In this document: in pieces, positions 1-45,414 of the stretch
Layout of the letters: the number at the start of each line of letters is the position of its first letter
Position numbering within the stretch: the first letter of the stretch is position 1
IMG/VR virus record: IMGVR_UViG_3300037657_000018
Span: 1 to 45,414 of that record
From: a virus
Taxonomy: Duplodnaviria > Caudoviricetes
Reading direction: 5' to 3' (one strand)
Length of the DNA stretch: 45,414 bases
The notes under the pieces: model-generated
Seen by the model: only the letters and a program-made list of their open reading frames with translations
Told to the model about the DNA's origin: nothing
Databases searched by the model: none
Program-made: the position numbers and the translations under genes

Positions 1-127
1 CAACCACCTCGCGGCCGCCAGCGAGGCGCAGATTGCCGACGAGCTTGGCGACTTCGTAGACCTCTACTACACGAACTACGGCAAGGCCGCGCTCGTCATC
101 TACGGCCACTGGTACGACCCAGGCGAC
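1..127. repeat. Terminal direct overlap, identical to 45288-45414 (circular assembly)
   Basis: caaccacctc...cccaggcgac occurs at both ends; 127 nt is a common assembler k-mer; one reading frame runs through the junction. Confidence 0.95.
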
Positions 128-3100: not shown

Positions 3101-4234
3101 GACAGCGCCGGAGAAGACATCGACTACTACTACAAGGTCCGGTTCAAGGACAACCCGTCCACCTACACCGATTACTCGCTGGTCAGCGCACCGACGACAT
3201 GGGTGGGCCAGCCGTCCGGCGACCCGTCGATCTCCAGCGTGACCGGAGACGCCCTGTCGCACGGCGAGACGGTGACGATCTCGGGTTCGAGCTTCGGGTC
3301 GAAGGCCACGGCCGCGCCCGTGCAGTACGACGACTTTGAGGAAGGTTCGCAGGGTGCAGACATTGCCACTACGTCGGGAACGACTGGGTGGAACATTGTT
3401 TCCGCAGGCGGGGACGGCGCCGGGCCCTGGTCAATGCCGATCTATTCCTCTACAGCGGCTCATACCGGACTCGGAATGATGTCTCGGTACGAGGGGCAGA
3501 CTGGCAGCAGCCGCGTGCTGAAGTCGGGTGCGTGGACAACCGACATGTATATCGACTTCTGGTGGCGCGCAGTTGACCCAGCGGACGCAAGGTCGCCAAA
3601 CTCGAAGCACTGGTTTGCGTATGGGAGCAACAGCGCAAGCAACAACACGCCGCAGCTGAACCTGCTCGGACAGTGCAACGTCGGAGCGCTCATGATCGCT
3701 CCGACATACAAGAACGGCCTCGGTGGGCCGAACGAGTATGTCACATCGTGGTCGAACCTTACTAACGGCATGAACCACTGGCAGTTCTCGTTCAAGTTCG
3801 ACCAGACAGGTGGCTCTGCTGGCCGGTATGACGTGTGGCGCAATGGAGTCAGAATTGACTACAGCGATGCGTTTAAGACGCATGACGCCGATGTCAACGC
3901 CGGGCAGTATTTCGACGAGCTGATTTTCGGCCACTACTACTCGCACTACTACCCGAACAACACCTGCGGGGCCGGCAGCTACTGCGGGTCAGGGTATGAC
4001 TATTTCGACAACATCTACATCGACAACACGACGGCCCGCGTCGAACTCGGCAACGCCTCGACGTATGACGCCTGCACGCAGCGCGAGATCCAGATTCCCT
4101 CGTCGTGGGCGGCTGGCAGCATCGGCATCACGGTTAACACCGGGTCGTTCCCAAACGACACAGAGTACTGGCTGTTCGTCATCGACGAGGACGGGACGCC
4201 GTCTGCAGGCAAGAAAGTCACGATCACCAACTAG
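2..4234 (+). CDS. 3' part of a ~1,914-aa exported multidomain protein: end of CE4 deacetylase, FN3, TIM-barrel glycoside-hydrolase-like domain, further FN3 repeats, C-terminal lectin/lyase-like beta-sandwich
   Basis: Frame is open from nt 2, in frame with ORF 209..4234 and with ATG 43777 across the junction. FN3 signatures (YNVYR...YYVTAVDRAGNES); GH-like GLFVDD/LIVAN/DGNMIEG; DDFE...YFDNIYID module. Confidence 0.85.
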   Translation, partial: NHLAAASEAQIADELGDFVDLYYTNYGKAALVIYGHWYDPGDDATASWVSEANLRYFIGLTNRLNSCQIMPHRDVVGLRLAGAQFLTPEQVSVAAGVTADSNQVQAVAADQDSIYDLGGHSNLLKMWVDVPRSSTTAQMADVIDPGAPTISLAFGYNNAAFVQWSASASEDVQYYNVYRYFDGASAVKIGTSTSANYFDTTAINGSPHNYYVTAVDRAGNESVASSTMTTTPGTIISVGRPAYYALWFQDPGASLTSDEIADIASFDAIVTGPFAMEGAAAEPAYTGLLSAVRAINSDHIMLQYVHPWQVRIDGQGSDRSPYKRIKAYCDTGTSGADTLGYACNVDGQIIKSYDQGPTTWHVNVMRAGAADSVAFIWAEAYQYLSRMSDEYTGLFVDDVVYDLETTVYDAANSGDTSPMNTIVDFDNDNTVFSSDAQEKAALQTYMVDFITALRREFAQRGLPNRLIVANSSIGRATSPGANATAIFSRLDGNMIEGPNQWFPGNAASDTTWDRAFGVRALMTHAQTAPAMQLFQVKTDSSIAYQSEVLALANDSWVCAQGNLATTGYGNSAVPEMVRRLPAPGTSFGYDIDDGGADPDTLTATWNNYTARMLLQRATAAQSADADSIYAVWPYVITDNTKSPGDVGYYLSRSYFWPKPADVGAPTTVVQMNDQGSYGGDRFVNLAWEANALPGDFRGWNIYRDPCDGCDAFLMESLPTVTETGTLAYAYVDSAVTNGVEYTYQVAAVDANMNVGSAADSDPLTPHDDTAPPIPQNLKIAGGGYYVDLDWNNSGGADLVGYYIARAMETGDGPGTFTARYDSVAISAYQDSTALSANTYYYYARAYDDDGNISAPSDTVWGGWLGEPDPPTFPAPSNVTVRADYPVAGRAAVIAFAPADTVGITGYQIFRGASADTGACVLYRDNVTDDAQYHSAYYEDLKANSDPDTTWYYTAKVLYATGWSEKFHTPRPGLTTGNYPSTVPAISPVPGDGGIFVYWTQLTGSDSTLVYRGTTAAEQALIATVAHGANPYFDDSAGEDIDYYYKVRFKDNPSTYTDYSLVSAPTTWVGQPSGDPSISSVTGDALSHGETVTISGSSFGSKATAAPVQYDDFEEGSQGADIATTSGTTGWNIVSAGGDGAGPWSMPIYSSTAAHTGLGMMSRYEGQTGSSRVLKSGAWTTDMYIDFWWRAVDPADARSPNSKHWFAYGSNSASNNTPQLNLLGQCNVGALMIAPTYKNGLGGPNEYVTSWSNLTNGMNHWQFSFKFDQTGGSAGRYDVWRNGVRIDYSDAFKTHDADVNAGQYFDELIFGHYYSHYYPNNTCGAGSYCGSGYDYFDNIYIDNTTARVELGNASTYDACTQREIQIPSSWAAGSIGITVNTGSFPNDTEYWLFVIDEDGTPSAGKKVTITN

Positions 4235-4467: not shown

Positions 4468-4673
4468 TGCTCACCAAGATCGTCGGACACTCGGCCATGT
4501 CGGACATGATGAAGAAGTTGAGCGGTGGGCCGCAGTCGCTTCTTCCGATGAGTCCGTCCAAGGGCGTCGGTGTTCCGTCTGGTCGTGGTGCCGCCCCCGC
4601 GAAGACTAGGCAGTACGTCGTTCCGATGCAGAAGCCGAAGAGCACGAAGCTCAAGGGGCCGTGGTGGAAGTAG
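4467..4673 (+). CDS. Small basic hypothetical protein
   Basis: TGATG coupling to the upstream ORF; Lys/Pro-rich. Confidence 0.55.
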   Translation: MLTKIVGHSAMSDMMKKLSGGPQSLLPMSPSKGVGVPSGRGAAPAKTRQYVVPMQKPKSTKLKGPWWK

Positions 4674-6088
4674 AATCCGTCACCGCGAATAGCACGGTCA
4701 TCTGGACCCCGCAGGAGGGCCCACAGGACACGTTTATCAGGTGCCCGGCTCTAGAGGCGTTCTACGGAGGTTCTGTTGGCGGGGGCAAGTCAGACGCCCT
4801 TCTCGGCGACTACTCGCGCGGCTGCGAACTTGGGTCTGGCTGGGTCGGCGTTCTGTTCCGGCGCAACTTCCCGGACATGGACGACATCATCAGGCGCTCG
4901 CACGAAATCTTCGGCCCCGTGTACGGCAGCAAGTGCTACTCGGCGTCCAAGTACCAGTGGAACTTCCCGAGCGGGGCCATCCTGCAGTTCCGCTCTCTGG
5001 AGAAGGACACCGACGTTTACAAGTACCAGGGCCAGCAGTACTCGTGGATCGGGTTCGACGAGCTGACCCAGTGGCCGACGCCATTCTGTTACACCTACCT
5101 GTTCAGCCGACTGCGGTCGGCCAAGGGCATGAAGGTCAGGATGCGCTGCGCGAGCAATCCTGGTGGACCGGGCCATGCGTGGGTGAAGCAAAGGTTCCTT
5201 GATCCCATGCCGCAGAACACCGGCCTGCGCGTCACCACGAAGAGCGGCGGCGCGTACTGGCGCGTGTTCATCCGGGCCCGCCTTGAGGACAACAAGATCC
5301 TCATGGACAACGACCCCGGATACGGGGATCGCGTGTACGAAGTCCACGACCCGGTGCTGGCCCACGCGCTGCGCACTGGAGACTGGAACATCCTCGCGGG
5401 GGCCGCCTTCCCCGAGTTCGACACGCGGCTGCACGTCATCGACAACGCGCCGATGCCGCAGGAGCGGCCGATCAGGCGCTCGATGGACTGGGGATTCAAG
5501 ACCCCATACGGCTGCACCTGGGGCTTCGCCTACGACGGCGACCTGATTATTGGCGGGGAGCTGTACGGGTGGAGCGGAACGCCGAATGTCGGCACCGAGG
5601 AGTCGCCGGAAGAGGTCAAGCGCAAGATCGCCAACTTCGAGGCGATGAATGAGATCTACGTTCCGGTCGGCCTGCTCGACAACCAGTGCTGGGCCGAGCA
5701 CGGGTACAAAAGCGAGATCGTCAGGCTTCTCTCGTCCGAGGGCCCGCACGACATGAACCCGCTGTCGTGGAAGCCGTGGGAGAAGGGAAAGTACTCGCGC
5801 ATCCAGCAGAATCAGCTCCTTCACGGGCTCATGTCGTCCACCAACGGGCGCACGAGGTTCAAGGTCATGCGCCGCTGCGTCCACACAATCAGGACGTTCC
5901 CGCTTCTGCAGCGTGACCAGAACAACCCCGAGGACGTCGATACTCGCTGTGAGGACCACCTCTATGACGCAACGAGGGCGCTGGCCGCTGCCGGCGTACC
6001 CACGCGGGAACAGCTGCGCGGTCGTGCCCTGAGGCGCAACATGGCGCCACGCACCAGAGGCTCAGACCTCACGGGAGGCAATTACTGA
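4661..6088 (+). CDS. terL: Terminase large subunit
   Basis: Walker A YGGSVGGGKS, Walker B WIGFDE, coupling motif ASNPGG, nuclease motifs SMDWG and EDHLYDATR. Confidence 0.95.
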   Translation: MVEVESVTANSTVIWTPQEGPQDTFIRCPALEAFYGGSVGGGKSDALLGDYSRGCELGSGWVGVLFRRNFPDMDDIIRRSHEIFGPVYGSKCYSASKYQWNFPSGAILQFRSLEKDTDVYKYQGQQYSWIGFDELTQWPTPFCYTYLFSRLRSAKGMKVRMRCASNPGGPGHAWVKQRFLDPMPQNTGLRVTTKSGGAYWRVFIRARLEDNKILMDNDPGYGDRVYEVHDPVLAHALRTGDWNILAGAAFPEFDTRLHVIDNAPMPQERPIRRSMDWGFKTPYGCTWGFAYDGDLIIGGELYGWSGTPNVGTEESPEEVKRKIANFEAMNEIYVPVGLLDNQCWAEHGYKSEIVRLLSSEGPHDMNPLSWKPWEKGKYSRIQQNQLLHGLMSSTNGRTRFKVMRRCVHTIRTFPLLQRDQNNPEDVDTRCEDHLYDATRALAAAGVPTREQLRGRALRRNMAPRTRGSDLTGGNY

Positions 6089-8061
6089 TGGCGATTACCC
6101 TGCGGTCTGAGTCTGCGAGAAACGAGGTCAGGGACCTCGTAATCGAGAACTGGCGCACGATGAAGGACGAGCGCGAGGCCCTTGAAATCAAGTGGCGCCG
6201 CTGCATGATGACGTACCTCTGCGAGCACGACAAGGCGTGGGTCCAGTTCGCGAAGGACGCCAACCGGTCCCACCGCTACGTCGCGCTCAACTGGGACGCC
6301 ATCGAGACCCTGCTGCCGCAGGTCTACGACTCCGTGTTCGGGCAGGACGACTACCTGAAGATCCGCCCGATGCGCGAGGGCTTCAATGAGGACGACGACC
6401 AGGTAGCGGAGATGATGAAGTATCTCCTGCGCTACCAGATGATGCACGGGAAGTACAAGCAGACGGCCAAGATCGGCATGAAGCAGCTGCTCATGCTCGG
6501 CAACTGCCCGTGGACGATGCAGTGGGTCGTCCGCAAGGCCGTGAACTACGGGAACTTCGTTGACGCGATGAAGAAGTGGGTCAAGGACACGGCCCAGTAC
6601 CAGCGCGAATACGAAGACATCATGATGGAGTACAACGACATCGCGATCCAGTCGCGCGCGATGGGGCAGGACCCGCCGCCGCCGCCGACGTTCAAGGAGC
6701 CAGCGCGCCCGCCGAAGGACATGTCCGTCGTGTTTGAGGGCCCGGTGCTGCGCGTGTCGTCGATCTTCAACTTCGTTCAGGAGCAGCACCCGAACGACGA
6801 GGCGTCGGCCCTGCGGATCATCCGCTCGTGGCGCACGCTGGCCTACCTGAAGCAGATGGCAAAGCCGGGAGAGGACGGCTACAAGCTGTACGAGAACCTC
6901 TCCAGCGTGCAGGAGATCGCCAGCGAAGACAGGTCAGAGGACAACTCGTCCGAGCACCTGTTGAAGATGGCCCTCGGAATGACGATGCCGACCGGCAAGA
7001 ACAAGGTCCAGCTCAAGGAGATGCACGGCACTTTTGAGATCAACGGCCCAGGTGGCGAGAAGGGCCTCTACGAGAACTACATCTGCACGGTGGCCAACAA
7101 CGAGCTGATCCGCTGCGAGCCGTCGCCGATGTTCTCCGGCCGGCCGCTGGTGCAGAACGCGCGCCTCATCACGATCGAGGGCGGCGTCTACGGCATCGGC
7201 GTTATCGAGAAGGCGCTCGACGAGCAGGACTCGGCTGTGGCCATCCACAACCAGAACATCGACGCCGTGGCCTCGATCATCTCGCCGGAGTGCGAGGTCG
7301 TCGAGGACCAGCTGGTCGATGGAGAGGCAAAGCCCAGCGGCCCCGGAGTGCGGCACTACGTCACGCAGGTCGGGACGTTCAACGCGATCCCGAAGAACTT
7401 TCAGGGCGTCCCCCTGGGCTTTGAGTCGCTGAATGCCTGCATTCGCCGTCACGAGCGTATCACGGGGTCGATCGACACCGGGTCCGGCAACACGGAGTCG
7501 GCCACCAAGACGGCACGCAACACGAACGTGATCGCCACCAAGCTGGGCGGGCACGTCGAGCAGGTCGAGCTGGACTTCATCGGCGAGTCGCTGAACGCGG
7601 CGATGGAGCTGAACGCCCAGTACATCGACGACAACCAGAAGTTCTCGATCACGCAGGACGAGCGCGTCCTGAAGCTGGACATCTCTCCCGAGCACATCCG
7701 GCGCGGGTGGCTCGTGTTCTCGGCCGGGTCGAAGTACATGGCCGAGAAGCAGGCGCGACTTGAGAAGCTGATGATGACGCTGCAGATGGCCACGCAGTCT
7801 GAGGCGAGCGGAAAGCCGTCGCCCGTGCGCATGGACAACCTGTGGCGCAAGCTGTTCAAGGAGGCCCTCGGCGAGGCCGACGACCTGCTCATGTCGAAGG
7901 AAGAATACGAGGCCGCGCTGCAGCAGTACCAGATGATGATCCAGGCGCAGCAGCTGGCCGCAACCAGAACGGCGATTGATGAAGCGACAGGACCTCCGGC
8001 TCCTGCAGCAGGCGCACCGGATGGGGCTTCTGGAGCCCCTGTTGGACCGCCTGCAGCGTAG
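6088..8061 (+). CDS. Portal protein
   Basis: 657 aa directly after TerL; YGIGVIE and TATE-like SATKT motifs; Gln/Pro-rich C-terminus. Confidence 0.85.
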   Translation: MAITLRSESARNEVRDLVIENWRTMKDEREALEIKWRRCMMTYLCEHDKAWVQFAKDANRSHRYVALNWDAIETLLPQVYDSVFGQDDYLKIRPMREGFNEDDDQVAEMMKYLLRYQMMHGKYKQTAKIGMKQLLMLGNCPWTMQWVVRKAVNYGNFVDAMKKWVKDTAQYQREYEDIMMEYNDIAIQSRAMGQDPPPPPTFKEPARPPKDMSVVFEGPVLRVSSIFNFVQEQHPNDEASALRIIRSWRTLAYLKQMAKPGEDGYKLYENLSSVQEIASEDRSEDNSSEHLLKMALGMTMPTGKNKVQLKEMHGTFEINGPGGEKGLYENYICTVANNELIRCEPSPMFSGRPLVQNARLITIEGGVYGIGVIEKALDEQDSAVAIHNQNIDAVASIISPECEVVEDQLVDGEAKPSGPGVRHYVTQVGTFNAIPKNFQGVPLGFESLNACIRRHERITGSIDTGSGNTESATKTARNTNVIATKLGGHVEQVELDFIGESLNAAMELNAQYIDDNQKFSITQDERVLKLDISPEHIRRGWLVFSAGSKYMAEKQARLEKLMMTLQMATQSEASGKPSPVRMDNLWRKLFKEALGEADDLLMSKEEYEAALQQYQMMIQAQQLAATRTAIDEATGPPAPAAGAPDGASGAPVGPPAA

Positions 8062-8186
8062 GGCCAAGACGAATAGCGCTCCAGTAGAGCCGTCCGGTCC
8101 AGAGTGGCCTCTGTTGAGGGCATTCAGGGACGGGAGGAGCGCGGAAGCCAGCGACACACTGGCGTGGCTCATTGGTGCCTTAAACT

Positions 8187-8213
8187 CGACCGACGGGTCG
8201 GAAAACACGGAGG
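8187..8213 (+). promoter_or_regulatory. Leader element: 5-bp stem, GACG loop, then AAAACACGG and RBS (copy 1)
   Basis: CGACC-GACG-GGTCG-G-AAAACACGG-AGG; a second copy at 10582-10609 has compensatory stem changes. Confidence 0.6.
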
Positions 8214-8219
8214 GTGAAG

Positions 8220-9059
8220 ATGGGTAAGTACGACGATCTGAGAGAGATGGGGCGTCTTTCGGGGGAACTCGACGATGACCTCAGTGGTGCGCCCAGCGCG
8301 GAGGACATCGCGTCCTCGACCACCGAGGAGATCCCGTCGTTTTCTGCCGAGTCCGACGACGACACACTCGGGAACGTTATCAGCCTCGACCAGCTCCTGG
8401 GTCTTGGCGACGAACCAGAGGCAACCCGCGAGCCAGAGCCGAAAGGCGAAGACGGCGAAGAGGAAGAGCCGAAGGGGCGTCGCGACAGGATCTCCGAGCT
8501 GTCGGAGCAGCTTAACGCCGAGCGTCGCCGGAACGACGAACTCGTCAATCGGCTCCTTGACCGCAGACCTGACAACACCGAGTCCGATGACGGCGTCCAG
8601 CCCGAGGAGCTTTCTCCGGCGACGAAGGAGTACTTCAAGAAGTACGGCCTCGTCACCAAGGAGGAAGTGTCCGGCCTGCTGAACGACCTGGAGCCGGTGA
8701 TGAAGCGTGTCAAGGACGAGCGGATCGCCGCCGCCATCGCAGCGCACGTCGATGGCTTTACGGTGCAGAACATGCCAGCACTGTACAAGGCCATGGCTGA
8801 CGCGCCCGAACAGAAACGCGCTCTTTACGAGGAAGGCTTGGCGGGGGCCGTAATTCTCGCCCGTGACCTTGTCGGCGGCGGTTCGCCGGACACGGCAGGC
8901 AAAAGGCGCACCGGAAGCAGCCTTGCTTCGCGGCATCACAGCGAGGCTGGATCGTCCAGCCGTCGCGACAACGAAGTCGATGGCGAGGCTGAAAAGCTCC
9001 GGCGCATCGAGTCCCTGACGGCAGAGCAGATTCACGCCCTGCTTGACGGGATCGGCTAA
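8220..9059 (+). CDS. Capsid scaffolding protein
   Basis: Acidic, low-complexity N-terminus plus coiled coil; lies between portal and capsid; ATG 8220 follows GGAGG. Confidence 0.8.
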   Translation: MGKYDDLREMGRLSGELDDDLSGAPSAEDIASSTTEEIPSFSAESDDDTLGNVISLDQLLGLGDEPEATREPEPKGEDGEEEEPKGRRDRISELSEQLNAERRRNDELVNRLLDRRPDNTESDDGVQPEELSPATKEYFKKYGLVTKEEVSGLLNDLEPVMKRVKDERIAAAIAAHVDGFTVQNMPALYKAMADAPEQKRALYEEGLAGAVILARDLVGGGSPDTAGKRRTGSSLASRHHSEAGSSSRRDNEVDGEAEKLRRIESLTAEQIHALLDGIG

Positions 9060-9079
9060 ACCAAGAAGGGAGCAGTCGC

Positions 9080-10153
9080 ATGGCGACTCTCAACACCCTT
9101 GCCGGCCTGCGTTCGTCCAATGAGGCGTCCCCGGAGATGCCCAAGCTGACGCGCGCCTGGTACAACAAGGTCTTCCTGACGATCGCGACGCCGAAGCTGG
9201 TTCACGACCAGTTCGGCATGCCCACCACGCTGCCCCAGGGCAACGGCGAACAGGTCCTGTGGCGGCGCTGGGAGCGCCTCACTGCGGCTGCTGTGCCGCT
9301 GCTCGAAGGCGTCAACCCGACCGGCAAGCGCCTGTCGTACACGAACGTGCTCGGCACCGTGTACTGGTACGGCGACTGGGTCGGCATCACCGACGTCGTG
9401 GACTTCATGCACCCGGACAACGTGCTGTCCATCGCCACCAAGCGGCTGGCCCAGCAGTCGGCGGAGACGAAGGACCTCGTGACCCGCGACGTGGTCAACG
9501 CCGGAACCTCGTTCCTGCGCATCACGGCTGATGGCACCACGCCGACCGTTGGCGTCGGCGCCCGCAGCACTGTCGCTGGTTGCATCACGAAGGCCGCCGT
9601 CGATACGGCCATCACCGTCCTGGAGGCGGAGGATGCCGAGTACTACCACGGCCCGATGGGTGCGTCCGTGAAGACCTCGACCGAGCCCATCGGCCCGGCC
9701 TTCGTGGCGATCGTCCACCCGCATGTCGCGCACGACTTCGTGAACGCCGCGTCCGGCTTCGGCACGGACTGGGTGCCTCGCGAGAAGTACGCCTCAGGCG
9801 GCGTGGCCTACCCGACCGAGATCGGCAAGTACCGCAACGTCAGGTTCCTGACCTCGACGGCTGCCAAGTACTGGGCGAGCACCGGTCACACGGCCAACGT
9901 CGGCACCACGCCCGCCGCGACCTACCGTTCGACGAACGGCAGCAACGGCGACGTGTACTCCGTGCTGATCCTGGCCAAGGAAGCCTTCGGCACGGTCAAG
10001 CTGGCCGGCGCGACGGCGACCTACTACAACAAGCCGGGCGGCAACGCCGACCCGCTGCACCGCAAGGCGACTGCGGGCTGGAAGGGTTGCTGGGGCGCTT
10101 CGATCCTCAACGACGACTTCATGGTCCGCATCGAGTGCCTGGCCCGCTGGTAA
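9080..10153 (+). CDS. Major capsid protein (N4-gp56 family-like)
   Basis: 357 aa; LLEGVNP, YGDW, IVHPHVAHD, EIGKYRNVRF and DPLxxxxxxGWK motifs. Confidence 0.9.
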   Translation: MATLNTLAGLRSSNEASPEMPKLTRAWYNKVFLTIATPKLVHDQFGMPTTLPQGNGEQVLWRRWERLTAAAVPLLEGVNPTGKRLSYTNVLGTVYWYGDWVGITDVVDFMHPDNVLSIATKRLAQQSAETKDLVTRDVVNAGTSFLRITADGTTPTVGVGARSTVAGCITKAAVDTAITVLEAEDAEYYHGPMGASVKTSTEPIGPAFVAIVHPHVAHDFVNAASGFGTDWVPREKYASGGVAYPTEIGKYRNVRFLTSTAAKYWASTGHTANVGTTPAATYRSTNGSNGDVYSVLILAKEAFGTVKLAGATATYYNKPGGNADPLHRKATAGWKGCWGASILNDDFMVRIECLARW

Positions 10154-10180
10154 ACCTGAACCGCTCACGGAGGTGAGAAA

Positions 10181-10540
10181 ATGGCTGTTGGAGACATCAC
10201 CTACACGAACCCCGGTGGCGAGTTGGCCACCTCGGCGTTCGCCAGTGGCAAGCTGATCGTGGACGCCGACGCTGCCGCGAACATCATCTGCGGATTCCAG
10301 CCTACTCGGGTGGAGCTGCTCTTGGTGGACGCCGGTGCGACGGCGAACACGATGATGATCTGGAACAACGCGATGCCTGACGGGACCTACGCGCTCATCA
10401 GCGACGGCGGGGACTTGACGTTCCCGACCACGCTGGGCGTCACGGTCTACTCCGGCGCTTCCGGCGAGGGTTTCACCATCCCCGCCAACCAGACCGGCGC
10501 TGCTGACAGCGACGTGATCTACTGGACGGCGTGGCGCTAG
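10181..10540 (+). CDS. Probable capsid decoration/minor structural protein
   Basis: Directly after the capsid gene; beta-rich, CGFQP...YWTAWR pattern; GGAGG RBS in a hairpin. Confidence 0.65.
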   Translation: MAVGDITYTNPGGELATSAFASGKLIVDADAAANIICGFQPTRVELLLVDAGATANTMMIWNNAMPDGTYALISDGGDLTFPTTLGVTVYSGASGEGFTIPANQTGAADSDVIYWTAWR

Positions 10541-10551
10541 CCACGGCAACA

Positions 10552-10573
10552 GGGGGCCCCTGCGGGGGCCCCC
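10552..10573. terminator. GC-rich hairpin after the capsid/decoration genes (terminator or RNA-stability element)
   Basis: GGGGGCCCC-TGCG-GGGGCCCCC; no U-tract on the + strand. Confidence 0.4.
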
Positions 10574-10581
10574 ACAACACC

Positions 10582-10609
10582 CGCCTGACGAGGCGCAAAA
10601 CACGGGAGG
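10582..10609 (+). promoter_or_regulatory. Leader element: 5-bp stem, GACG loop, then AAAACACGG and RBS (copy 2)
   Basis: CGCCT-GACG-AGGCG-C-AAAACACGG-GAGG. Confidence 0.6.
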
Positions 10610-10614
10610 ACGAC

Positions 10615-11094
10615 ATGGCCAGAGACTTTGCGATCAAGGAAGAAGATGTGGTGGCGACGCGCGAGCGCGAGCTTCGTGAGGCGCTGAAGGCCGCCGAGGT
10701 GCAGAAGGCGGACGACCCGTCCAACGCCGAGCTGTTCAACTTCACGCCCGGACAGCCGTTGCCTCCTGGGTTCGTGAACCCCGAGGGCGGCACCGACGAG
10801 CACAAGTGCGTCGATAACAACGGGCTGTACCAGCCGACGTGGACGCAGCTCTTTCTGGAGCGGATCGTCGATCACCAGCAGGACCCGCAACCTCTGGCGT
10901 GCCTGCCCAAGTACACAGTGCCGCTTGAGCGCTGGGTGGACGTGCCGCCGTCCGTGATGGAGGCACTGAAGTCCGCGATCGAGACGCACCACGAGCACAA
11001 CGCCAAGCCGGGTGACATCGACCTTGGCGTCAAGACGGTCCACGTCACTCGGGACCGGCGCCGGTTCCACTGGCTGCACATGAAGAGCGCCTAG
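10615..11094 (+). CDS. Hypothetical protein in the head-tail region
   Basis: ATG 10615 after GGAGGA; coding-like codon use. Confidence 0.75.
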   Translation: MARDFAIKEEDVVATRERELREALKAAEVQKADDPSNAELFNFTPGQPLPPGFVNPEGGTDEHKCVDNNGLYQPTWTQLFLERIVDHQQDPQPLACLPKYTVPLERWVDVPPSVMEALKSAIETHHEHNAKPGDIDLGVKTVHVTRDRRRFHWLHMKSA

Positions 11095-11103
11095 GAGGGC
11101 AAC

Positions 11104-12015
11104 ATGAGAAAGTTCCTGCCGTTGCTTCTCGTCGCGTTGATGGCCACCTCCGCCATGGCCAGCACTGCGTACATCTACCAGAACGCCGTGACGACGCTTC
11201 GTGGTGACGTTGTCGGTGGTGCTTCTGTCGGTGTGTACTTCGCCGGGACTACGACCAAGGCGACCATCTACTCCGACATGTACACGGAGACCCAGAAGCA
11301 GAATCCGACGCACACGGACGGCTACGGCAGGTTCTTTTTCTACGCCAATCCTGGGCTGTACGACCTCGTAATCAGCGGGCCCAACATCACGACGTACACC
11401 ATGCACGACGTTCGCATCGCGCGGGCTGACTGGACCGGAAGCGAAGCTCTTGAAAGTGGCGCATGGACTCGCTTGCCAATGGTGTCTGGACTGTCTGGCA
11501 AGGGCGCTTCGGCCGCACCGACGGAAGCGACGTGGAAGGGCGTTCACAAGGTGTGGGAGTTCGGCGAGGGCGGAGGTGAGTATCTGTACTGCTCTGTCGC
11601 TTTCCCGTCGTCATACATGAGAGACAGCCCTGCCATTCCCGTGTTCAGGTTCGTTAACGAGGACACGATCTTCGACGGAGATGTCGTGTCGTTCAGGACG
11701 AATTACGTCATCTGTAACACAAGGGAAGTGGCGCAGGACACGGTCAGCGCCATTTCAAAGCTGACCAACAATGCGGCGCTTCGTGCCACGCTGTCTTCGC
11801 CGCTGAAGCACTTCGCAAGGATCAAGCCGGGGTGCGTGCTGTACGCCGTTCTTGACTCGATCCCGTCACTGGACCTGACTGACCATACCATTGTTTCTGT
11901 CCGCATTGACCGCGTGGCCAACGGGGACCACGCGGGAGACATCTACCTTCTCGGGGCAGATATGGCCGTCAAGGTAGACAGGCTTGGCGTTCAGAGCGTC
12001 GGCGAACTCCACTAG
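11104..12015 (+). CDS. Signal-peptide protein with a tailspike-type N-terminal attachment domain
   Basis: MRKFLPLLLVALMATSAMA (AxA cleavage site), then ATIYSD...NPTHTDGYGRFFFYANPGLYDLVISG, typical of tailspike/fibre anchor domains. Confidence 0.75.
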   Translation: MRKFLPLLLVALMATSAMASTAYIYQNAVTTLRGDVVGGASVGVYFAGTTTKATIYSDMYTETQKQNPTHTDGYGRFFFYANPGLYDLVISGPNITTYTMHDVRIARADWTGSEALESGAWTRLPMVSGLSGKGASAAPTEATWKGVHKVWEFGEGGGEYLYCSVAFPSSYMRDSPAIPVFRFVNEDTIFDGDVVSFRTNYVICNTREVAQDTVSAISKLTNNAALRATLSSPLKHFARIKPGCVLYAVLDSIPSLDLTDHTIVSVRIDRVANGDHAGDIYLLGADMAVKVDRLGVQSVGELH

Positions 12016-12030
12016 GGAAGGCTGGTCCAA

Positions 12031-12786
12031 ATGATTATCGTCGAATCTGGATCTGGGCCGCGCTCGTTTCTTGAGGCCGTGCGCAGGATCGTGACGATCA
12101 ACGGCGAGTCCGACATCGCTACGCTGCTGGCCCCGACGAACAGGGTCAAGACGGCCATGCGCGCCGTCGAGGACGCAAGGGACGACATCTTTTACGAGAC
12201 CCTGTGGGAGTTCAGGCGCGCGTTCTACAAGATCACGTTTGTCGAAAAGCAGGTGTGGTACGAAGCGCCGGTTGGCCAGCACAAGGCCGGTCAGTTCCTG
12301 TCGCTGAACGACCCGAACAAGAAGATCCCGTTCGTCAACTACGACGACTTCATCGGCAGGTTCCCAGACCTCCGCTCGTTCCCTCCTGGGGCCGGTGTCG
12401 GCGACATGACAACCGTTCTTGAGTTTCTCGCCCAAGAGCACGCATACGGCCCGCCCGAGTGCTATACGGCGTGGGGTGGGTACATCGGCGTCATGCCAGC
12501 GCCGGACGCCGAGTTCATCGAGAGCTACCCGAGCGCCATCACGACGATGTGGTCGCACGCCACGGCCCTGCAGTCGGAGCAGGACGACATCGGCCTGCCT
12601 CGCGAGCTGTGGACGGCCCACCATCTGCTCGCGATGGCCTACTACAAGAAGGCGCTGGAGTACCCTGACTGGTCAACCGACAGGGACGAGGCGTGGCGGC
12701 TGCTCCACAAGCGCGCGGCGTCGAAGCGCGAGCAGCAGGACGCGAACGTGTACCACAACACCGGCGGCATTGACTACAACGAGTAG
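12031..12786 (+). CDS. Tail adaptor (tail tubular protein A-like)
   Basis: Position, size, and WEFRR / PAPD motifs typical of podovirus adaptors. Confidence 0.7.
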   Translation: MIIVESGSGPRSFLEAVRRIVTINGESDIATLLAPTNRVKTAMRAVEDARDDIFYETLWEFRRAFYKITFVEKQVWYEAPVGQHKAGQFLSLNDPNKKIPFVNYDDFIGRFPDLRSFPPGAGVGDMTTVLEFLAQEHAYGPPECYTAWGGYIGVMPAPDAEFIESYPSAITTMWSHATALQSEQDDIGLPRELWTAHHLLAMAYYKKALEYPDWSTDRDEAWRLLHKRAASKREQQDANVYHNTGGIDYNE

Positions 12787-12795
12787 GCGGTTGGC

Positions 12796-14475
12796 ATGAC
12801 CTACGATCTCAGGCCGGAGCAGGCACCGATCAACCAGTTCGGCGGGCTCAACACGATGGTGTCCGAGGTCGCCCTCGGGCCCGGCCAGAGCCCGAGCATG
12901 GTCAACGTGGACCTGCATGTGTCTGGCTCGGTCCTCAAGCGGTACGGCATGGTGTCGCTGACGATGCCCGTGGGCGTGACCAGCTTCGTGGCCCTCATGC
13001 GCCTGAACCAGCCGGAGGACGGGACGGGGTGGATTTACGCCATCTCGTCTGATGGAAAGCTGTACAGGACGCCGGACCCAGGGACGTGGGGATGGGAGGC
13101 CGTTGACACCACCCCCGCTCTGGAGTTCCCAGACCAGAAGGTCTACGGATGGGCTCAGTCGAGATTCCGCGACGACGCGACGCCGACCGAGTACCCGTCC
13201 GCCCTGTACATCCCAAGGTCGGATGGCGCCCCCGTCATTGTTGTCGGAGCCGCCGACGCCGCCGACGACATTCTGGAGATGCCAGCCGGGGCGTATGGTG
13301 ACGGGTCAGCCGGAAGCGGTACGCCGGGCTACCCGGACACATGGGTCGAGGGCCACTGGCCGCAGTTCATGCGCGTGGTCGGCCTGGGTCGCGGCGCCCG
13401 CATGTGGGCATGGGGGTTTGCCGACGACAAGAACAAGGCGTACTACTCGTGCGTCGATGAGCCGCACAACTTCCTGAACTTCAACGTCGATGATCCTGGC
13501 GCGGCCGACCAGCCATACATCGACGGCGGAGCGATTTATGCCCGGCGCGGCGACGGAGATCGCATCGTGTCGATCGTGGACATGTTCTCGTACACGGTGA
13601 TCTTCAAGTCGCGCGTGACGTTGCTGTACACTGGCGACCCTGGCACCGACGACTGGACGCTGCGGGCCGAGATCCCCGTGGGTTGCGTCAATGACCGCGC
13701 GTGGGTCAAGGCCGGAAACGAGCTGTACTTCTGGTCGCCCAAGGGGCTGCGTGCGCTGTCGGCCGTGCAGGAGTACGGCGACCTGCAGCAGTCCAACCTT
13801 TCGTGGCCGATTTCCAATCTCGTCAACGAGATCGCACCGGGAGAGCACGACCGCATCCGGTGCTACCACGACGTGACGTCCATGAAGACCGTCTGGTTCG
13901 CGCCAGTTGGAGCCACGGCCCACAACGACCAGGCGTTCGTCCACTTCTACGCCAACCAGTCGTGGTCGAGGTACAGCGGGAACTTCTGCAAGATGAACGA
14001 CATCCTTGTCGTTGAGCCCACGGAAAACGAGAACGAGAAGATTCTCGGCGCTCCGTATGGGCTCGGCGTCGTCCGCGCGCAGGCTGGCTACGCAGACATC
14101 GACCAGAACGTCAGCGCCGAGTACATCACGAACTGGCACAACTTCGGGCCGGTGCAGGACTCGTCGCGGATGCTGTGGATCGACGCATGGTTCGGCAACG
14201 GCGGCACTGCGGCCACGCTGGCGTTCCAGTTCGACCTCAAGTCCACATGGGAGATCGTGCAGCGCATCACCAGCTCGTTCGGAAGCTCTGGCACGGTGTG
14301 GCGGCAGTTCAAGTGGGGACAGGCCAAGTGGGGCGTTCGCTCGCGCGCGCACCGCAGGTTTGAGGCTGGCGGCCTGTTCAACATGATCCGGTTCAAGTTC
14401 TACGCAAGCAGCAAAACGTCGTTTGAAATCATGGGCTACAGGCCCGAGGTCAGAATGAGGGGACCGCGCGCATGA
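12796..14475 (+). CDS. Tail nozzle / DNA-stabilisation protein (tubular B or P22 gp10-like)
   Basis: FGGLN start, NVD...G.VLKRYG, VGCVN, LYFWS.KG; beta-propeller-like pattern. Confidence 0.8.
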   Translation: MTYDLRPEQAPINQFGGLNTMVSEVALGPGQSPSMVNVDLHVSGSVLKRYGMVSLTMPVGVTSFVALMRLNQPEDGTGWIYAISSDGKLYRTPDPGTWGWEAVDTTPALEFPDQKVYGWAQSRFRDDATPTEYPSALYIPRSDGAPVIVVGAADAADDILEMPAGAYGDGSAGSGTPGYPDTWVEGHWPQFMRVVGLGRGARMWAWGFADDKNKAYYSCVDEPHNFLNFNVDDPGAADQPYIDGGAIYARRGDGDRIVSIVDMFSYTVIFKSRVTLLYTGDPGTDDWTLRAEIPVGCVNDRAWVKAGNELYFWSPKGLRALSAVQEYGDLQQSNLSWPISNLVNEIAPGEHDRIRCYHDVTSMKTVWFAPVGATAHNDQAFVHFYANQSWSRYSGNFCKMNDILVVEPTENENEKILGAPYGLGVVRAQAGYADIDQNVSAEYITNWHNFGPVQDSSRMLWIDAWFGNGGTAATLAFQFDLKSTWEIVQRITSSFGSSGTVWRQFKWGQAKWGVRSRAHRRFEAGGLFNMIRFKFYASSKTSFEIMGYRPEVRMRGPRA

Positions 14476-25013: not shown

Positions 25014-25631
25014 ATGGACCCGATCACGACACTCTCTGGCCCCATCAGTGTGGCCGCTTTCGACGACGACGTGGACGCTGTCGGAACGGCCGTTCTGGCC
25101 GAGATCATGCAGCTTCTGGACAAGGTCAACGAGGTCATCGGCGGCCTCACCGACGTTTCCGACCTGCTCGACGAGACCATCGTGGACGTGGAGGCCATGT
25201 CCGACCACGAGCTGAGGATCGACAACCTTGAGTCGGCCGCCTCCACCAACCTCGTGTACGACTCCAGCCCGTTCCCTAGCGACACCGTACTGCTTCTGAC
25301 CGCTGCGGACGTTCTCGCCTACCGGACGATCAACATTCGCGGGTCAACTCCTGGGATCACGAACATCAAGCTGGTGCTCCCCTCGGTGAACCAGGCCGTC
25401 GCCCCCATCACGGTCATCGCGCACGACCTCGCGTCTCTTAAGATCTTCGTGGACGGCTCGTGGATGACGGGCGTGGCGTCGAACTACGGCGCAGACGCTG
25501 GATACGTCCTCATGAGTGTCGCCAGCGGCAACGGCATGTGCATGCAGTTCACCGTAGGGAAGAACCCGGTCGATAGCCTCCAGTACTGGACGCCGATCGG
25601 CCCCTACAGCGGCCTGATGATTACGCCATGA
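25014..25631 (+). CDS. Hypothetical protein, possibly structural
   Basis: TAAATG coupling; coiled-coil N-half, beta-rich C-half. Confidence 0.7.
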   Translation: MDPITTLSGPISVAAFDDDVDAVGTAVLAEIMQLLDKVNEVIGGLTDVSDLLDETIVDVEAMSDHELRIDNLESAASTNLVYDSSPFPSDTVLLLTAADVLAYRTINIRGSTPGITNIKLVLPSVNQAVAPITVIAHDLASLKIFVDGSWMTGVASNYGADAGYVLMSVASGNGMCMQFTVGKNPVDSLQYWTPIGPYSGLMITP

Positions 25632-30174: not shown

Positions 30175-30449
30175 TGTTCTATAAGCTGTGGAGAACAGGA
30201 CGGTACTGGTACTTCCGTAAGTTCCAGTTTCGTCCAGACAGGATGTACGGGAGCTGGGGGGCCTGCAGCGACCATCTCTCGGTAGGCGACTTGCGGGAGG
30301 TCTGGCGTCGGGATGTCGAGTTGTGCATCCCCAAGGAGTACAGGGACCGCGTGCAGTACGTCTACAGCGAGCCGATTTGCAATGACCCGCTTTGCCAATA
30401 CGGGATTTGCGGGTGGAAATACGTTCCAGAAGCAAGGAGAAAGCCATGA
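30174..30449 (+). CDS. 91-aa protein with a capsid-like DPLx6GWK motif
   Basis: TGATG coupling; NDPLCQYGICGWK versus capsid ADPLHRKATAGWK. Confidence 0.65.
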   Translation: MFYKLWRTGRYWYFRKFQFRPDRMYGSWGACSDHLSVGDLREVWRRDVELCIPKEYRDRVQYVYSEPICNDPLCQYGICGWKYVPEARRKP

Positions 30450-30796
30450 AGCGACTGACCCGACTGCTCATCATCGCGGCGGTGCTGCTGCCGATGGTCG
30501 TGGGCGCACAGACGGGAACGATCACCACCACATACACCACCACGGCGCCGACCACGGGCAACCCGGTCGTCACCTACGAGTGGCAGATGAGCGCCAACAA
30601 CGGCTCCACCTGGGCTCCGGCTGGCACCAGTACCACGCTATCCAAGGCAATCCCGCTGACGGTGGGCAGCGTCTATATCGTGCGCGTGCGCGGCATCGAC
30701 GCCCTCGGGCAGGCCGGCGTGTGGTCGCCCGTGTCGGACCCGAACACGCCGAACGCTGGGCCTCCGGGTGCATGCGGAAAGCCGTCGTGGCTGTGA
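30446..30796 (+). CDS. Secreted single fibronectin type III domain protein
   Basis: Signal peptide MKRLTRLLIIAAVLLPMVVGA; TAPTTG...YEWQ...YIVRVRGID..G..GVWS..S. Confidence 0.85.
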   Translation: MKRLTRLLIIAAVLLPMVVGAQTGTITTTYTTTAPTTGNPVVTYEWQMSANNGSTWAPAGTSTTLSKAIPLTVGSVYIVRVRGIDALGQAGVWSPVSDPNTPNAGPPGACGKPSWL

Positions 30797-37839: not shown

Positions 37840-38085
37840 CTACCTTCGCCGATGGATTGCCCGACAGGCCAGCGCCAGCAGCAGCGCCAGCGCGACGATA
37901 CGCGCGCCGCTGGCGCGCCCGAGCGCCCACAGGAGCGCCGCCAGCACCGCCAGCGCCGCACCAGCCAGCACCAGCCCCCACGCCACGCACCGGGCCACGC
38001 AGGCGGCCCAGCGCCACGCGGCCCAACCGTCAATCCCGTGCCAGCGCGCGAACGCGCTCAACTCGCGCCTGATTTTATCCGCCAT
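37840..38085 (-). CDS. Small membrane protein
   Basis: MADKIRRE...; two hydrophobic helices; overlaps the peptidase stop. Confidence 0.6.
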   Translation of the reverse strand: MADKIRRELSAFARWHGIDGWAAWRWAACVARCVAWGLVLAGAALAVLAALLWALGRASGARIVALALLLALACRAIHRRR

Positions 38086-40514: not shown

Positions 40515-40527
40515 TGCCGCGCCCCCC

Positions 40528-40716
40528 CTAGTTATCCAGCGCGCCAGCGGCAGCGCAGGAGATGACACACACGCCCAGCGCCACCATTGACGCATCGGAC
40601 CACCCACGCGCGAAGCCGCTAGCGATACAGCACACCGCCAGCACGAGGAACCCAATCGCGGACCCGGCGAACACGTCACGAGCCACCGATTGCGCCAGCG
40701 CGCGCCGCCTAGTCAT
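40528..40716 (-). CDS. Small two-TM membrane protein
   Basis: Overlap coupling with the upstream ORF; hydrophobic. Confidence 0.55.
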   Translation of the reverse strand: MTRRRALAQSVARDVFAGSAIGFLVLAVCCIASGFARGWSDASMVALGVCVISCAAAGALDN

Positions 40717-42913: not shown

Positions 42914-43347
42914 AGCGCAAGGATTGGTGCTGCCTGTGCGGCCAGGAGAAGTGCCAGTGCCCGCCGGTCGGCAAGGAGGGCCTACGGACGCTCGTCCCAG
43001 CCTGTGTGACCTGCGGCATGGCCATGGGGTGGGACCACGCCAGGTGGTGCGCCAAGAGCCGCCTGCGTGGCCTGACGGATCTCGTCCAGTGGGACGACTG
43101 CGTGATGCTGCCGGAGTCATCCCCGCTTGAGATCCCCCGCGCTGTGAGCCCTGAGCCCTCCGATCAGGAGTTTTCCCGCTGTTGGATGTGTCGGTGGTAT
43201 GACCCGAAGCATGTCGGCGCGAATCCGTCCGGGTTCTGTCGGCGTTACGCCCCGGTGGCCGGCGGGCCGCCCGAAGTTCGCCCCACCGACTGGTGCGGCG
43301 AGTTTGAACCAGCGGGCCAGGAGGCCCAGGAAGGTCGGAAGCCGTGA
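42910..43347 (+). CDS. Cys-rich protein (C..C...G.CRRYAP...DWCGEF family)
   Basis: Motif common in small phage proteins; overlap coupling. Confidence 0.7.
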   Translation: MKRKDWCCLCGQEKCQCPPVGKEGLRTLVPACVTCGMAMGWDHARWCAKSRLRGLTDLVQWDDCVMLPESSPLEIPRAVSPEPSDQEFSRCWMCRWYDPKHVGANPSGFCRRYAPVAGGPPEVRPTDWCGEFEPAGQEAQEGRKP

Positions 43348-43772
43348 GTGAGAAGATGCTCAACCGGGCGCTTTCAGTGGCGGCCGGTTTCCTGTTGGTG
43401 GTCCTGCTGCTGATGGCCACCGGTGCCAACGCCCAGTCGGTGTCCGAGAAGCCCCTGACCCACCCGCGCTGGGTGGCGGATGGCCCCGCTGTCGGCCAGT
43501 GGCTGATGACGCTGTCGCGCGCGGCCACCGACACGTCGAGCGACGGCCTGCGCGCCATCGAGTGCCATGCCGACACCGAGACGAAGTTCGTGGCGTACTG
43601 GTACCGCAAGGGCGCCGGGACCGACAAGCGGAAGTGGCCGATTCTCGGCGTGGGCCCAGCCGACACCTGCTACACGATCCCCGCCGGAGAGACGCGGACC
43701 TACACCTTCGACAAGCCGTTCGTCCAGTTCATCATCGTGACGAGCGGCGACGCCGTATTCGCCGGGGAGTAA
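43344..43772 (+). CDS. Signal-peptide protein, small beta-rich (possible spike base/adaptor)
   Basis: MSEKMLNRALSVAAGFLLVVLLLMATGANA (AxA site); LRAI...TIPAGET. Confidence 0.75.
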   Translation: MSEKMLNRALSVAAGFLLVVLLLMATGANAQSVSEKPLTHPRWVADGPAVGQWLMTLSRAATDTSSDGLRAIECHADTETKFVAYWYRKGAGTDKRKWPILGVGPADTCYTIPAGETRTYTFDKPFVQFIIVTSGDAVFAGE

Positions 43773-43776
43773 GCAC

Positions 43777-45414
43777 ATGAAGCGGAAGCTGCTGGTGCTG
43801 TGGATGGCGCTGGTCGTAGGGCTGGCGCTTCTGTCCATGTGCGGGTCCGGGCGGGTCGGGTATCAGGGCGGGTACGCGAGGTCGGTTGGGCCGGGGCAGC
43901 AGGGGTACACTGGGGGCGGCTCCGCTGTCCCCGACACATTCCGCATCTGGAACCACCACTGGAAGTACCCGAACACGGCGGCCAAGACGGCAGGCTACGT
44001 CTACACCGACACGACCCGCTACACGACGATCAACCGCGCCGCCAATGGCCAGAACATCCGCTGGGGCTGGATCAACCGCGCGCTGCCTGATTCCGTGCAG
44101 GCATCGGCAGGCGCCGTTTCCGACTACCAGAACTGGACCCGCTCCAACGGGAACACAACGCAGGACGACTTCACATGGCACGCCTCGCAGCGGCTGTTCT
44201 TTGTCTGGATGACGGCCAATGGCCTGAAGGATGGGCAGAAGGTCGAGGACGCCTATCTCACCGTCAACGTGTCTTCTGGTGCGTGGACGCTTCCGGCTGG
44301 CGTGTACCTCTCTTGCGTCCTTGACACGATCTCCAAAGACTACCGCATCCTGAACGGCAACTCCGTCGGCCTGTGGGGCACGGCGAACAACGACTCGTCA
44401 CGCTTCAAGGCAACGTGGAACCAGTTGGTCCGCGCCACACCGTCGGCGTGGGAGCCCGTGCTGACCGACCGTGGGGACTACCACGACTTCGGGCCGAGAT
44501 CGGCAACGACGTTCGGGCCTGGGGCTGGCGCGGCGCAAGGCACCCCGCTGCGCTTCGACGTGAAGGATGCCGTGCAGCAGGCATTGGACAACGGCGAGTC
44601 TGAACGCGGATTCCTGTTCGTGATCTATGCCTACTCGTCAAACTCGAACACGACGGCTTGGGATTTTATCGCCGGTAATGCGTCGTCGGTGGCCACCGGA
44701 AAGGGCAACCCGACATTCACGGCCACCACGACCAGCAGGCGCGGCCCCAAACCGTGGAGCGGCCAGCGCGTCCCCGTCACGATCCAGTTTGACGACTCCT
44801 ATGATGTCCAGGTCGGGTACTACCGCGCACTGACTGACAGCGGTCATGTGTTCAACGCCGCCGCCTGCTCGACGAACTTCGCGGCCCGCGACTGGCTCGA
44901 CAGCCTCTACACGCTTGACCCAGCGTCCATCTACTTCATGAACCACACCAAGACGCACGCATCCATCGGGTCGGTGAGCGGGTCTGCGCTGTACGCTGAG
45001 CTTTCGCGGACGTGGTTCCCGTCTCTGATTACCGCCGACATCGACACAAGCGCCATCGTTGACTTCTCGCTTGCCGGCGGCGCCGGATCTCCCGTGATCG
45101 ACGCTGAAGCCGTTGAGGCGCTATACGACTTCGGGTACAGGTCCATGCGGTCGGGCGGGTTCGATTGGATGGCGGCCCCAGGATTCAACCACGACTCGTT
45201 CCTGTCGTGGGACGCGCCCGTGAACCGCTACCAGATCAGGTCCGTGGCCGCCGAGTACATTTTCGGCTATCCGGGCGGGTGGGCGGGCAACCACCTCGCG
45301 GCCGCCAGCGAGGCGCAGATTGCCGACGAGCTTGGCGACTTCGTAGACCTCTACTACACGAACTACGGCAAGGCCGCGCTCGTCATCTACGGCCACTGGT
45401 ACGACCCAGGCGAC
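43777..45414 (+). CDS. 5' part of the ~1,914-aa exported protein: signal peptide, Gly-rich linker, DNRLRE/CBM96-like domain, CE4 polysaccharide deacetylase; continues at nt 128
   Basis: Hand translation has no stop. MKRKLLVLWMALVVGLALLSMC; VEDAYLTV...FDVKDAVQQAL; VTIQFDDS, NHTKTH, VIYGH. Confidence 0.88.
   Translation, partial: MKRKLLVLWMALVVGLALLSMCGSGRVGYQGGYARSVGPGQQGYTGGGSAVPDTFRIWNHHWKYPNTAAKTAGYVYTDTTRYTTINRAANGQNIRWGWINRALPDSVQASAGAVSDYQNWTRSNGNTTQDDFTWHASQRLFFVWMTANGLKDGQKVEDAYLTVNVSSGAWTLPAGVYLSCVLDTISKDYRILNGNSVGLWGTANNDSSRFKATWNQLVRATPSAWEPVLTDRGDYHDFGPRSATTFGPGAGAAQGTPLRFDVKDAVQQALDNGESERGFLFVIYAYSSNSNTTAWDFIAGNASSVATGKGNPTFTATTTSRRGPKPWSGQRVPVTIQFDDSYDVQVGYYRALTDSGHVFNAAACSTNFAARDWLDSLYTLDPASIYFMNHTKTHASIGSVSGSALYAELSRTWFPSLITADIDTSAIVDFSLAGGAGSPVIDAEAVEALYDFGYRSMRSGGFDWMAAPGFNHDSFLSWDAPVNRYQIRSVAAEYIFGYPGGWAGNHLAAASEAQIADELGDFVDLYYTNYGKAALVIYGHWYDPGD
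45288..45414. repeat. Terminal direct overlap, identical to 1-127
   Basis: Exact sequence match. Confidence 0.95.

Follow-up and report, generated by a model that had tools for sequence, protein, structure and literature searches.

The virus record IMGVR_UViG_3300037657_000018 (Duplodnaviria; Caudoviricetes) is considered here over its full stretch of 45,414 bases, referred to as the window, and its genes are named by the position of their first base. The main subjects are three genes whose products begin with signal-like leaders: 11104, which lies among the virion genes, and the adjoining pair 43344 and 43777, located upstream of the terminase gene. Because the two ends of the window share a 127-bp direct repeat, the window is a circular podovirus (short-tailed phage) genome of 45,287 bp, with a GC content of 63.8%. 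The gene layout is that of a short-tailed phage. Its core runs in the order terminase 4661, portal 6088, scaffold 8214, major capsid 9080, likely cement 10181, 10531, likely adaptor 12031, and likely nozzle 12796, where the adaptor, cement, and scaffold labels follow gene position. Pfam or PHROGs matches were obtained for the terminase, the SU10-type portal, the major head protein, and the nozzle-like tail protein, as well as for an LPD38 giant protein (17259; ejection) and an M15 endolysin (25628).

Signal-like leaders were sought on both strands at all ATG and GTG starts with a Shine-Dalgarno (SD)-like word, in open reading frames (ORFs) of ≥55 amino acids (aa), using as criteria a charged n-region and a 10-residue hydrophobic core (h-region) with a mean hydropathy of ≥2.5. 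Signal calls therefore combine a hydropathy heuristic with inspection, backed by conservation in homologues. Four plus-strand genes were recovered (11104, 43777, 43344, and 30446), together with two on the minus strand, namely 40716, a probable membrane protein of 62 aa, and 3693, which is antisense within the big gene. None of the terminase, portal, capsid, adaptor, nozzle, or ejection genes passed the scan. The leaders have the features of predicted Sec/SPI signal peptides, i.e., a charged n-region, a hydrophobic core, small residues at −3 and −1, and conservation. Their sequences agree with those quoted in the original prediction: the signal of 43344 ends in ATGANA, that of 11104 ends in TSAMA, and 43777 opens with MKRK plus 17 uncharged residues followed by Cys22. 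The same source had raised the possibility of true starts further downstream; within the first 50 codons, none of the in-frame starts that follow the h-regions has a clear SD word, and an alternative ATG at codon 5 of 43344 would retain the h-region. The SD word is strong at 11104 and weak at 43344. Since the heuristic is leaky (a looser cut-off also flags 11 of 99 extension-less homologues of the 11104 anchor domain), the leader call for 11104 rests chiefly on the presence of an extension ahead of a domain that elsewhere begins at Met1.

That domain, the virion anchor, comprises residues 20–105 of 11104. In a first search, all six homologues of 11104 kept the leader, and in four of them the shared ~86-residue block is followed by a pectate-lyase-like beta-helix domain. 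Searched by itself, the block finds 21 records from cultured phages, in which it corresponds to the N-terminus of an annotated tail fibre or spike (best E 2e-5), and in each of four such records that were opened the gene begins at the anchor block, without a leader. A profile of the mature anchor gave 2897 matches at E ≤0.001 among 1.84 billion proteins. Of the best 150 of these, 49 have an N-terminal extension of 12–45 aa (signal-like in 45), 99 have <12 aa and start at the anchor, and two hold the anchor internally. The predicted cleavage site of 11104 coincides exactly with the start of the signal-less homologues. The leader sequences themselves vary, while the pattern of charged, hydrophobic, and small residues stays, and the conserved leader of 11104 is a departure from the leaderless, cytoplasmic type of tailspike.

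Single-sequence Pfam and PHROGs searches gave nothing significant for 11104, 43344, or 43777. A 54-sequence family profile of the anchor, however, matches the "tailspike head-binding domain" of 7EEQ at E 1.9e-5 over ~48 positions, and also the tail spike chains of 9VYG; a narrow profile of six sequences reached only E 0.14, to 9VYG. In the accessible text of PMC13730344, 7EEQ is the Pam1 tail entry. The comparison with tailspike anchors proposed in the original prediction was thus borne out, and by profile homology the N-terminal domain of 11104 is a homologue of a solved podovirus tailspike head-binding domain. A complex prediction with two adaptors (12031) and three anchors (score 0.15; mark 0.32) returned no answer and is used neither way. 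A quick tree with 93 columns covers 143 of the 150 rows. Gain and loss are indistinguishable on it, and the signal label needs at least eight changes, four of them forced by starred branches, versus a shuffled mean of 38; the label is therefore clustered and not a single accident. Rows left out of the tree were P0041, P0055, P0109, P0144, and P0152 (internal or unclear) and P0018 and P0024 (near-duplicates). One clade of 40 rows contains 37 signal-bearing proteins, including that of the window.

Related phages were gathered by capsid and anchor scans and show 56–68% capsid identity. Four distinct phages reach the slot occupied by 11104 (L003, L019, L020, and L022), with L009 and L010 appearing to be copies of L022. 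In all four, the slot sits between the head genes and the adaptor and encodes a signal plus anchor with tailspike-type bodies (L003, 961 aa; L022, 520 aa; L020, 694 aa; L019, 842 aa). The core gene order is that of the window, and the portal, capsid, cement, adaptor, and nozzle genes of these phages carry no signal. Beta-helix tailspike bodies in the relatives replace the C-terminal domain of 11104, which is itself not a beta-helix. Hence 11104 lies in a virion operon and has a receptor-binding-type C-terminus that is exchangeable in four of four relatives.

The second signal-bearing locus pairs a small gene with a very large one. A 43344-like gene lies upstream of the terminase, immediately before a large signal-bearing gene, in all four loci that show both (the window, L003, L014, and L019). 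The small beta protein outlined in the original prediction by its RAI...TIPAG stretch was located in 43344. Eight homologues were aligned with it, and the seven that are full-length all open with a signal-like leader; a more distant homologue is L019:318-731 (E 1e-8). The model of 43344 is a small, jelly-roll-like beta-sandwich (pLDDT 71). Foldseek returned nothing for it at E ≤0.001 (best E 0.03), and among the rows listed are PirA, YomS, and numerous small phage proteins that are uncharacterised, with no RcGTA chain. A PDB sequence search with the 43344 alignment gave nothing meaningful, tblastn against cultured phages gave two weak rows, and the ESM Atlas gave sub-threshold leads only (features ≤0.83; XepA cluster, TM 0.52). 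The product of 43344 is a candidate capsid-vertex base for the large protein, 43777.

As the 127-bp terminal repeat lets the ORF read through, the frame 2..4234 belongs to the same gene as 43777, which encodes a protein of 1914 aa with 14 Cys. Two Cys motifs ascribed to this protein in the original prediction, CDGC and CGAGSYC, do lie in the same gene, but outside 43777–45414 (window positions 2117 and 3965, in frame 2..4234). All eight homologues of the N-terminal module bear a signal, and the earlier question of whether leaders are kept in homologues can be answered affirmatively for 11104, 43344, and 43777 alike. The Gly-rich segment behind the leader spans ~30 residues with scattered Y, V, and L and is modelled as disordered. 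Foldseek matches to the model of 43777–45414 (pLDDT 47) include 7VBO, 8WAB, and the HFTV1 turret 8QPG; they are leads only, in which a low-confidence beta-sandwich resembles alginate- and chondroitin-binding modules as well as that turret. Residues ~333–620 match the CE4 enzymes 7AX7 (E 7e-4) and 2CC0 by profile, and the FDD motif and two metal-site His (D339, D340, H390, and H394) are invariant in 10 of 10 sequences; as judged from these matches, the region is a CE4/NodB deacetylase-like domain. The continuation of the protein past the origin is matched by blastp in L001 (a Pfam-fn3 protein), L022 (38% over 1322 columns), and L020:3924-5024 (E 3e-24). In the last of these, the C-terminal module of 43777 is a stand-alone, signal-bearing gene.

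Table 1. Coordinates and strands of the features discussed, in window numbering.
Feature	Position	Strand	Remarks
Exported tailspike/fibre (predicted), 11104	11104..12015	+	Signal 11104-11160; virion-anchor domain 11161-11418; C-terminal domain ~195 aa
Small exported beta protein (predicted), 142 aa	43344..43772	+	Predicted signal 43344-43433
43777, first 546 aa	43777..45414	+	Signal, Cys22, Gly-rich flexible segment (~residues 23-50), CBM96-like beta-sandwich, CE4/NodB deacetylase-like domain
43777 past the circular origin, residues 547-1914	128..4234	+	FN3-like repeats, unassigned middle domain, TIG-like domain, C-terminal module
Fourth gene with a signal; 116 aa, one FN3-like domain	30446..30796	+	SD AGGAG, signal; phrog_31 FN3-like stretch, E 4e-7
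Signal-less podovirus core flanking 11104	4661..14475	+	Pfam and PHROGs
Signal-less 205-aa protein 3' of LPD38 ejection gene; candidate tail needle	25014..25631	+	Position, coiled-coil-like N-half
127-bp direct repeat, copy of bases 1-127	45288..45414	.	Circular-genome assembly overlap most likely

A further line of evidence comes from a short motif. According to the accessible text of a review on general O-glycosylation in Bacteroidota (PMC12871550), D(S/T)(A/I/L/V/M/T) is the acceptor site of this system, in non-cytoplasmic proteins only. This Bacteroidota-type motif was the one tested here. In the window, it occurs 23 times in the exported proteins versus 11.8 expected, and 18 times versus 21.4 in 17 signal-less proteins. 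With the anchor removed, 30 signal proteins of the main clade contain 194 sites versus 87.9 expected (2.2-fold), compared with 125 versus 127 in 70 signal-less homologues, and the per-protein medians of the ratio are 2.36 and 0.84, respectively. Reversed, E-, N-, and D[AGN] control motifs are flat in the main clade. Across five related phages, the ratio is 1.6–2.7 in the exported slots versus 0.5–1.1 in core genes. L, V, T, and M are favoured at the third position after D[ST], which is close to the order of preference given in the text available from the same review (PMC12871550). The N-glycosylation motif NxS/T shows a small excess only (25 versus 18.7 in the window, 220 versus 191 in the main clade). 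Given that the D(S/T) motif acts only outside the cytoplasm, its enrichment in signal-bearing proteins offers independent support for these proteins leaving the cytoplasm.

From these data, we infer a route comprising export, cleavage, glycosylation by a host with the Bacteroidota-type system, docking, and a head-spike role for 43344 and 43777. The tail spike 11104 and the likely head-spike pair would be exported to the host periplasm through their Sec-type signals, and cleavage of the signal would expose the anchor as the new N-terminus of 11104. If the host has a Bacteroidota-type system, it would O-glycosylate the exported proteins at their D(S/T)-hydrophobic motifs. The spikes would then dock onto the particle, itself built in the cytoplasm, when the inner membrane gives way at lysis and periplasm and cytoplasm mix. 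The absence of leaders from the parts that retain DNA (portal, adaptor, nozzle, and the candidate needle 25014) fits docking at lysis. On balance, we regard Sec export, probable O-glycosylation by the host, and docking at lysis as the favoured account of 11104 and 43344/43777, held with moderate confidence, and the case is strongest for the tail spike (11104) and weaker for the head spike (43344/43777). The exported appendages put forward in the original prediction are thereby upheld with respect to conserved signals, a real tailspike anchor in 11104, and a conserved pair of small and large genes; the disulfide rationale offered for them does not stand, as discussed below. Likewise, its remark that no tail fibre is recognisable beyond 25014 agrees with Pfam and PHROGs, in which no other was found; 25014 itself has zero Pfam, PHROGs, or PDB matches.

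Several known systems resemble parts of this arrangement. The tailspike head-binding domain of cyanopodophage Pam1 (7EEQ) and 9VYG contain the homologous N-terminal anchor, ahead of which 11104 adds a signal. The same anchor occurs, with podovirus gene order, in Oceanospirillum phage GJ44, Idiomarinaceae phage 1N2-2, Serratia phage WR01, and Escherichia phage Alux-21, where the fibres or spikes start at the anchor and, unlike 11104, have neither a leader nor a motif excess. A precedent for signal-bearing proteins reaching a tailed virion is provided by gp085–gp087 of Cellulophaga phage phi18:3 (NC_021794), which have signal-like leaders and are annotated as virion or tail proteins from tandem mass spectrometry (MS/MS). 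As with 43344/43777, their genes are upstream of lysis and terminase genes, and the likeness is one of position and leader; the record is silent on export. The phi18:3 genes (L038:2892-8584) are depleted of the glycosylation motif of their own host, as if it were avoided. In Burkholderia phage Bcep781 (NC_004333), gp49 is annotated as "possible tail fiber; possible signal peptide domain", and a leader is indeed present. This differs in being a Cys-rich protein (15 Cys) of a myovirus-type genome, known by a database note only.

For the 43344/43777 pair, the closest parallel is the RcGTA head spike, in which, according to the accessible text of PMC7296036, a jelly-roll pentamer (Rcc01079, the base) holds an IALGLGLGL peptide of the fibre (Rcc01080). 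The arrangement is alike in that a small gene, whose product is a jelly-roll there and is predicted to be jelly-roll-like here, adjoins a long gene for a known (there) or putative (here) glycan-binding protein with Gly and hydrophobic residues near its N-terminus, and the pair is conserved here. No sequence match or significant fold match was found between the two systems. In addition, both genes are signal-bearing here, the segment is irregular (a Gly-rich stretch of 30 aa containing Y/V/L instead of IALGLGLGL), and the long protein, at 1914 aa, is a putative enzyme of many modules, such that the link is one of resemblance only, not membership. The Bacteroidota system, as far as described in the available text of PMC12871550, shares the motif and the restriction to exported proteins, with a similar third-position preference. 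It is described there for cellular proteins, whereas the setting here is a phage genome of 64% GC, and the word "phage" occurs zero times in that review. The Bdellovibrio MAT fibres are phage-spike-like and have signal peptides, but they are cellular adhesins, not virion parts, in the accessible text of PMC10769870. A term search of the main text of the Tunturi paper (PMC11924767) found neither "signal peptide" nor "periplasm". In the literature on signal peptides of phage fibres, spikes, and virion proteins, an export route is not announced in listings and abstract openings, a scope that excludes subscription papers and supplements.

A number of points weigh against the export-and-docking route. 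With respect to the host, a genome scan yielded only three distant Clostridia loci (31–36% capsid identity), and one distant homologue of the signal clade occurs in a metagenome-assembled genome labelled Xanthomonadales. To date, no member of the clade is on record as a virion protein, nor is there any observation of cleavage. The excess of the motif does not extend to signal-bearing appendages in general, since seven signal-bearing anchors outside the main clade have 19 sites versus 16.6 expected, and gp085–gp087 of phi18:3, which has a Bacteroidota host, are motif-poor (3 versus 9.5), unlike the clade of the window. The excess is also unevenly spread, with 20 of the 23 window sites in the 1914-aa protein, 3 versus 1.3 in 11104, and zero in 43344 and 30446. 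Moreover, the motif test was post hoc, conceived after the sequences were read, and the comparison was made without a control set of exported FN3/CE4 proteins from non-glycosylating bacteria. The large protein 43777 is without a recognised virion anchor, and in six of 13 homologues of its N-module the sequence MCG directly follows the h-region and could be a lipoprotein anchor; 43777 may thus stay membrane-anchored. Finally, 30446, which sits in the early/middle region and was absent from the list in the original prediction, shows that an export signal also occurs on a protein encoded outside the virion operon.

In the same seven anchors outside the main clade (P0060, P0061, P0085, P0116, P0142, P0143, and P0163), the motif N[ST][AILVMT] occurs 36 times versus 19.7 expected, possibly reflecting the modification system of another host.

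Some of these points are accommodated by an alternative in which the exported proteins are retained in the infected cell's envelope and remodel or mask surface glycans, leading to superinfection exclusion or easier release, with the anchor being a re-used domain. The MCG of the 43777 homologues would suit it, as would the deacetylase and FN3 modules, which are typical of enzymes that bacteria secrete, the location of 30446 outside the late operon, and the signal-bearing, phage-like surface fibres of Bdellovibrio; the motif excess fits equally well. Yet the phage would then be left without a recognisable tailspike, and 11104 lies between the head genes and the adaptor in four relatives, where its C-terminal body is swapped like that of a receptor-binding protein. 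Furthermore, a Met at −1 of Cys22 is atypical for the usual lipobox, and the Cys after the h-region is missing in seven of 13 homologues. Retention in the envelope appears unlikely overall; it suits 43777 and 30446 better than it does 11104.

A different question is what export would be for. Folding through disulfides was the purpose suggested in the original prediction; alternatively, export could keep glycan-degrading enzymes out of the cytoplasm, and in either case docking would still occur at lysis and the surplus of motifs would simply follow from the domains that the proteins contain. The 1914-aa protein does have close Cys pairs (833/847, 1210/1213, and 1826/1832), in some of which disulfides are possible, 43344 has two Cys, and the signal-bearing virion proteins of phi18:3 are motif-poor. 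Nevertheless, the three Cys of 11104 are missing from both of its full-length homologues, two of nine aligned sequences lack the second Cys of 43344, and the distant L019 homologue keeps neither Cys of that protein. Even Cys counts are found in 16 of 34 signal-bearing and 25 of 52 signal-less anchor proteins. With no parity bias and no conservation in 11104 or 43344, disulfide folding was rejected as the main purpose of export. Tailspikes that share the anchor and have similar bodies but no signal also lack the motif excess, and these other purposes together seem improbable. Lastly, the leaders might not serve export at all, being uncleaved membrane tethers that face the cytoplasm, vestiges, or miscalled starts. 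Such a reading could draw on the leakiness of the heuristic and the weak SD at 43344. It is very hard to reconcile with variable leaders that hold the signal pattern and end where signal-less homologues begin, with the strong SD at 11104, and with the enrichment, in exactly these proteins, of a motif that is used solely in non-cytoplasmic proteins.

Other features of the window and its relatives deserve mention. The product of 30446 is devoid of the D(S/T) motif, and has a TTT-rich start and a C-terminal Cys. A gene between the nozzle and ejection genes (14472-15002, plus strand), whose product is presumably acetyltransferase-like, is kept in L003, L019, L020, and L022. Two long ORFs overlap on the plus strand in different frames (29068-30174 and 29072-30151), one being C5 DNA methyltransferase-like and the other matching methyltransferase-associated PHROGs families. 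The phage also encodes a sigma-70-family factor (36306-37163, plus strand). On the minus strand, the block 38075-40679, which may resemble amidoligase-type phage modules, holds a peptidase-like ORF (38075-39076) plus a Cys-rich ORF of 570 aa with repeated CxxC. Among the relatives, L021 has the cement-like gene 3' of its capsid gene twice (L021:5812-6731). Spanin-like genes with a C-terminal hydrophobic segment and DSL motifs precede the terminase in L018 (L018:972-1322) and L019 (L019:4672-5269), with no obvious counterpart there in the window, and they point to a host with two membranes.

Tailed phages are generally taught to assemble entirely in the cytoplasm. If the route of export and docking at lysis holds, a Sec-dependent branch of these phages would complete assembly in an additional, final step at lysis, and maturation of their spikes would depend on export and glycosylation by the host. 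Here a known tailspike anchor would probably be on a different manufacturing route. Annotation pipelines would in that case mislabel such spikes as auxiliary enzymes of the host, and host-made glycans on the spikes could affect stability, self-binding, and host range. A bolder and more tentative version, possible though somewhat doubtful, is that a widespread uncultured podovirus lineage makes all of its host-recognition parts in the periplasm, namely tail spikes and, on a jelly-roll base, a head spike of 1914 aa that binds and deacetylates glycans, with every part host-glycosylated and attached at lysis. As the signal was gained or lost repeatedly within a single anchor family, such a route would be easy to evolve. 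The anchor family offers matched signal-bearing and signal-less versions, and the cultured phage phi18:3 makes export followed by docking testable.

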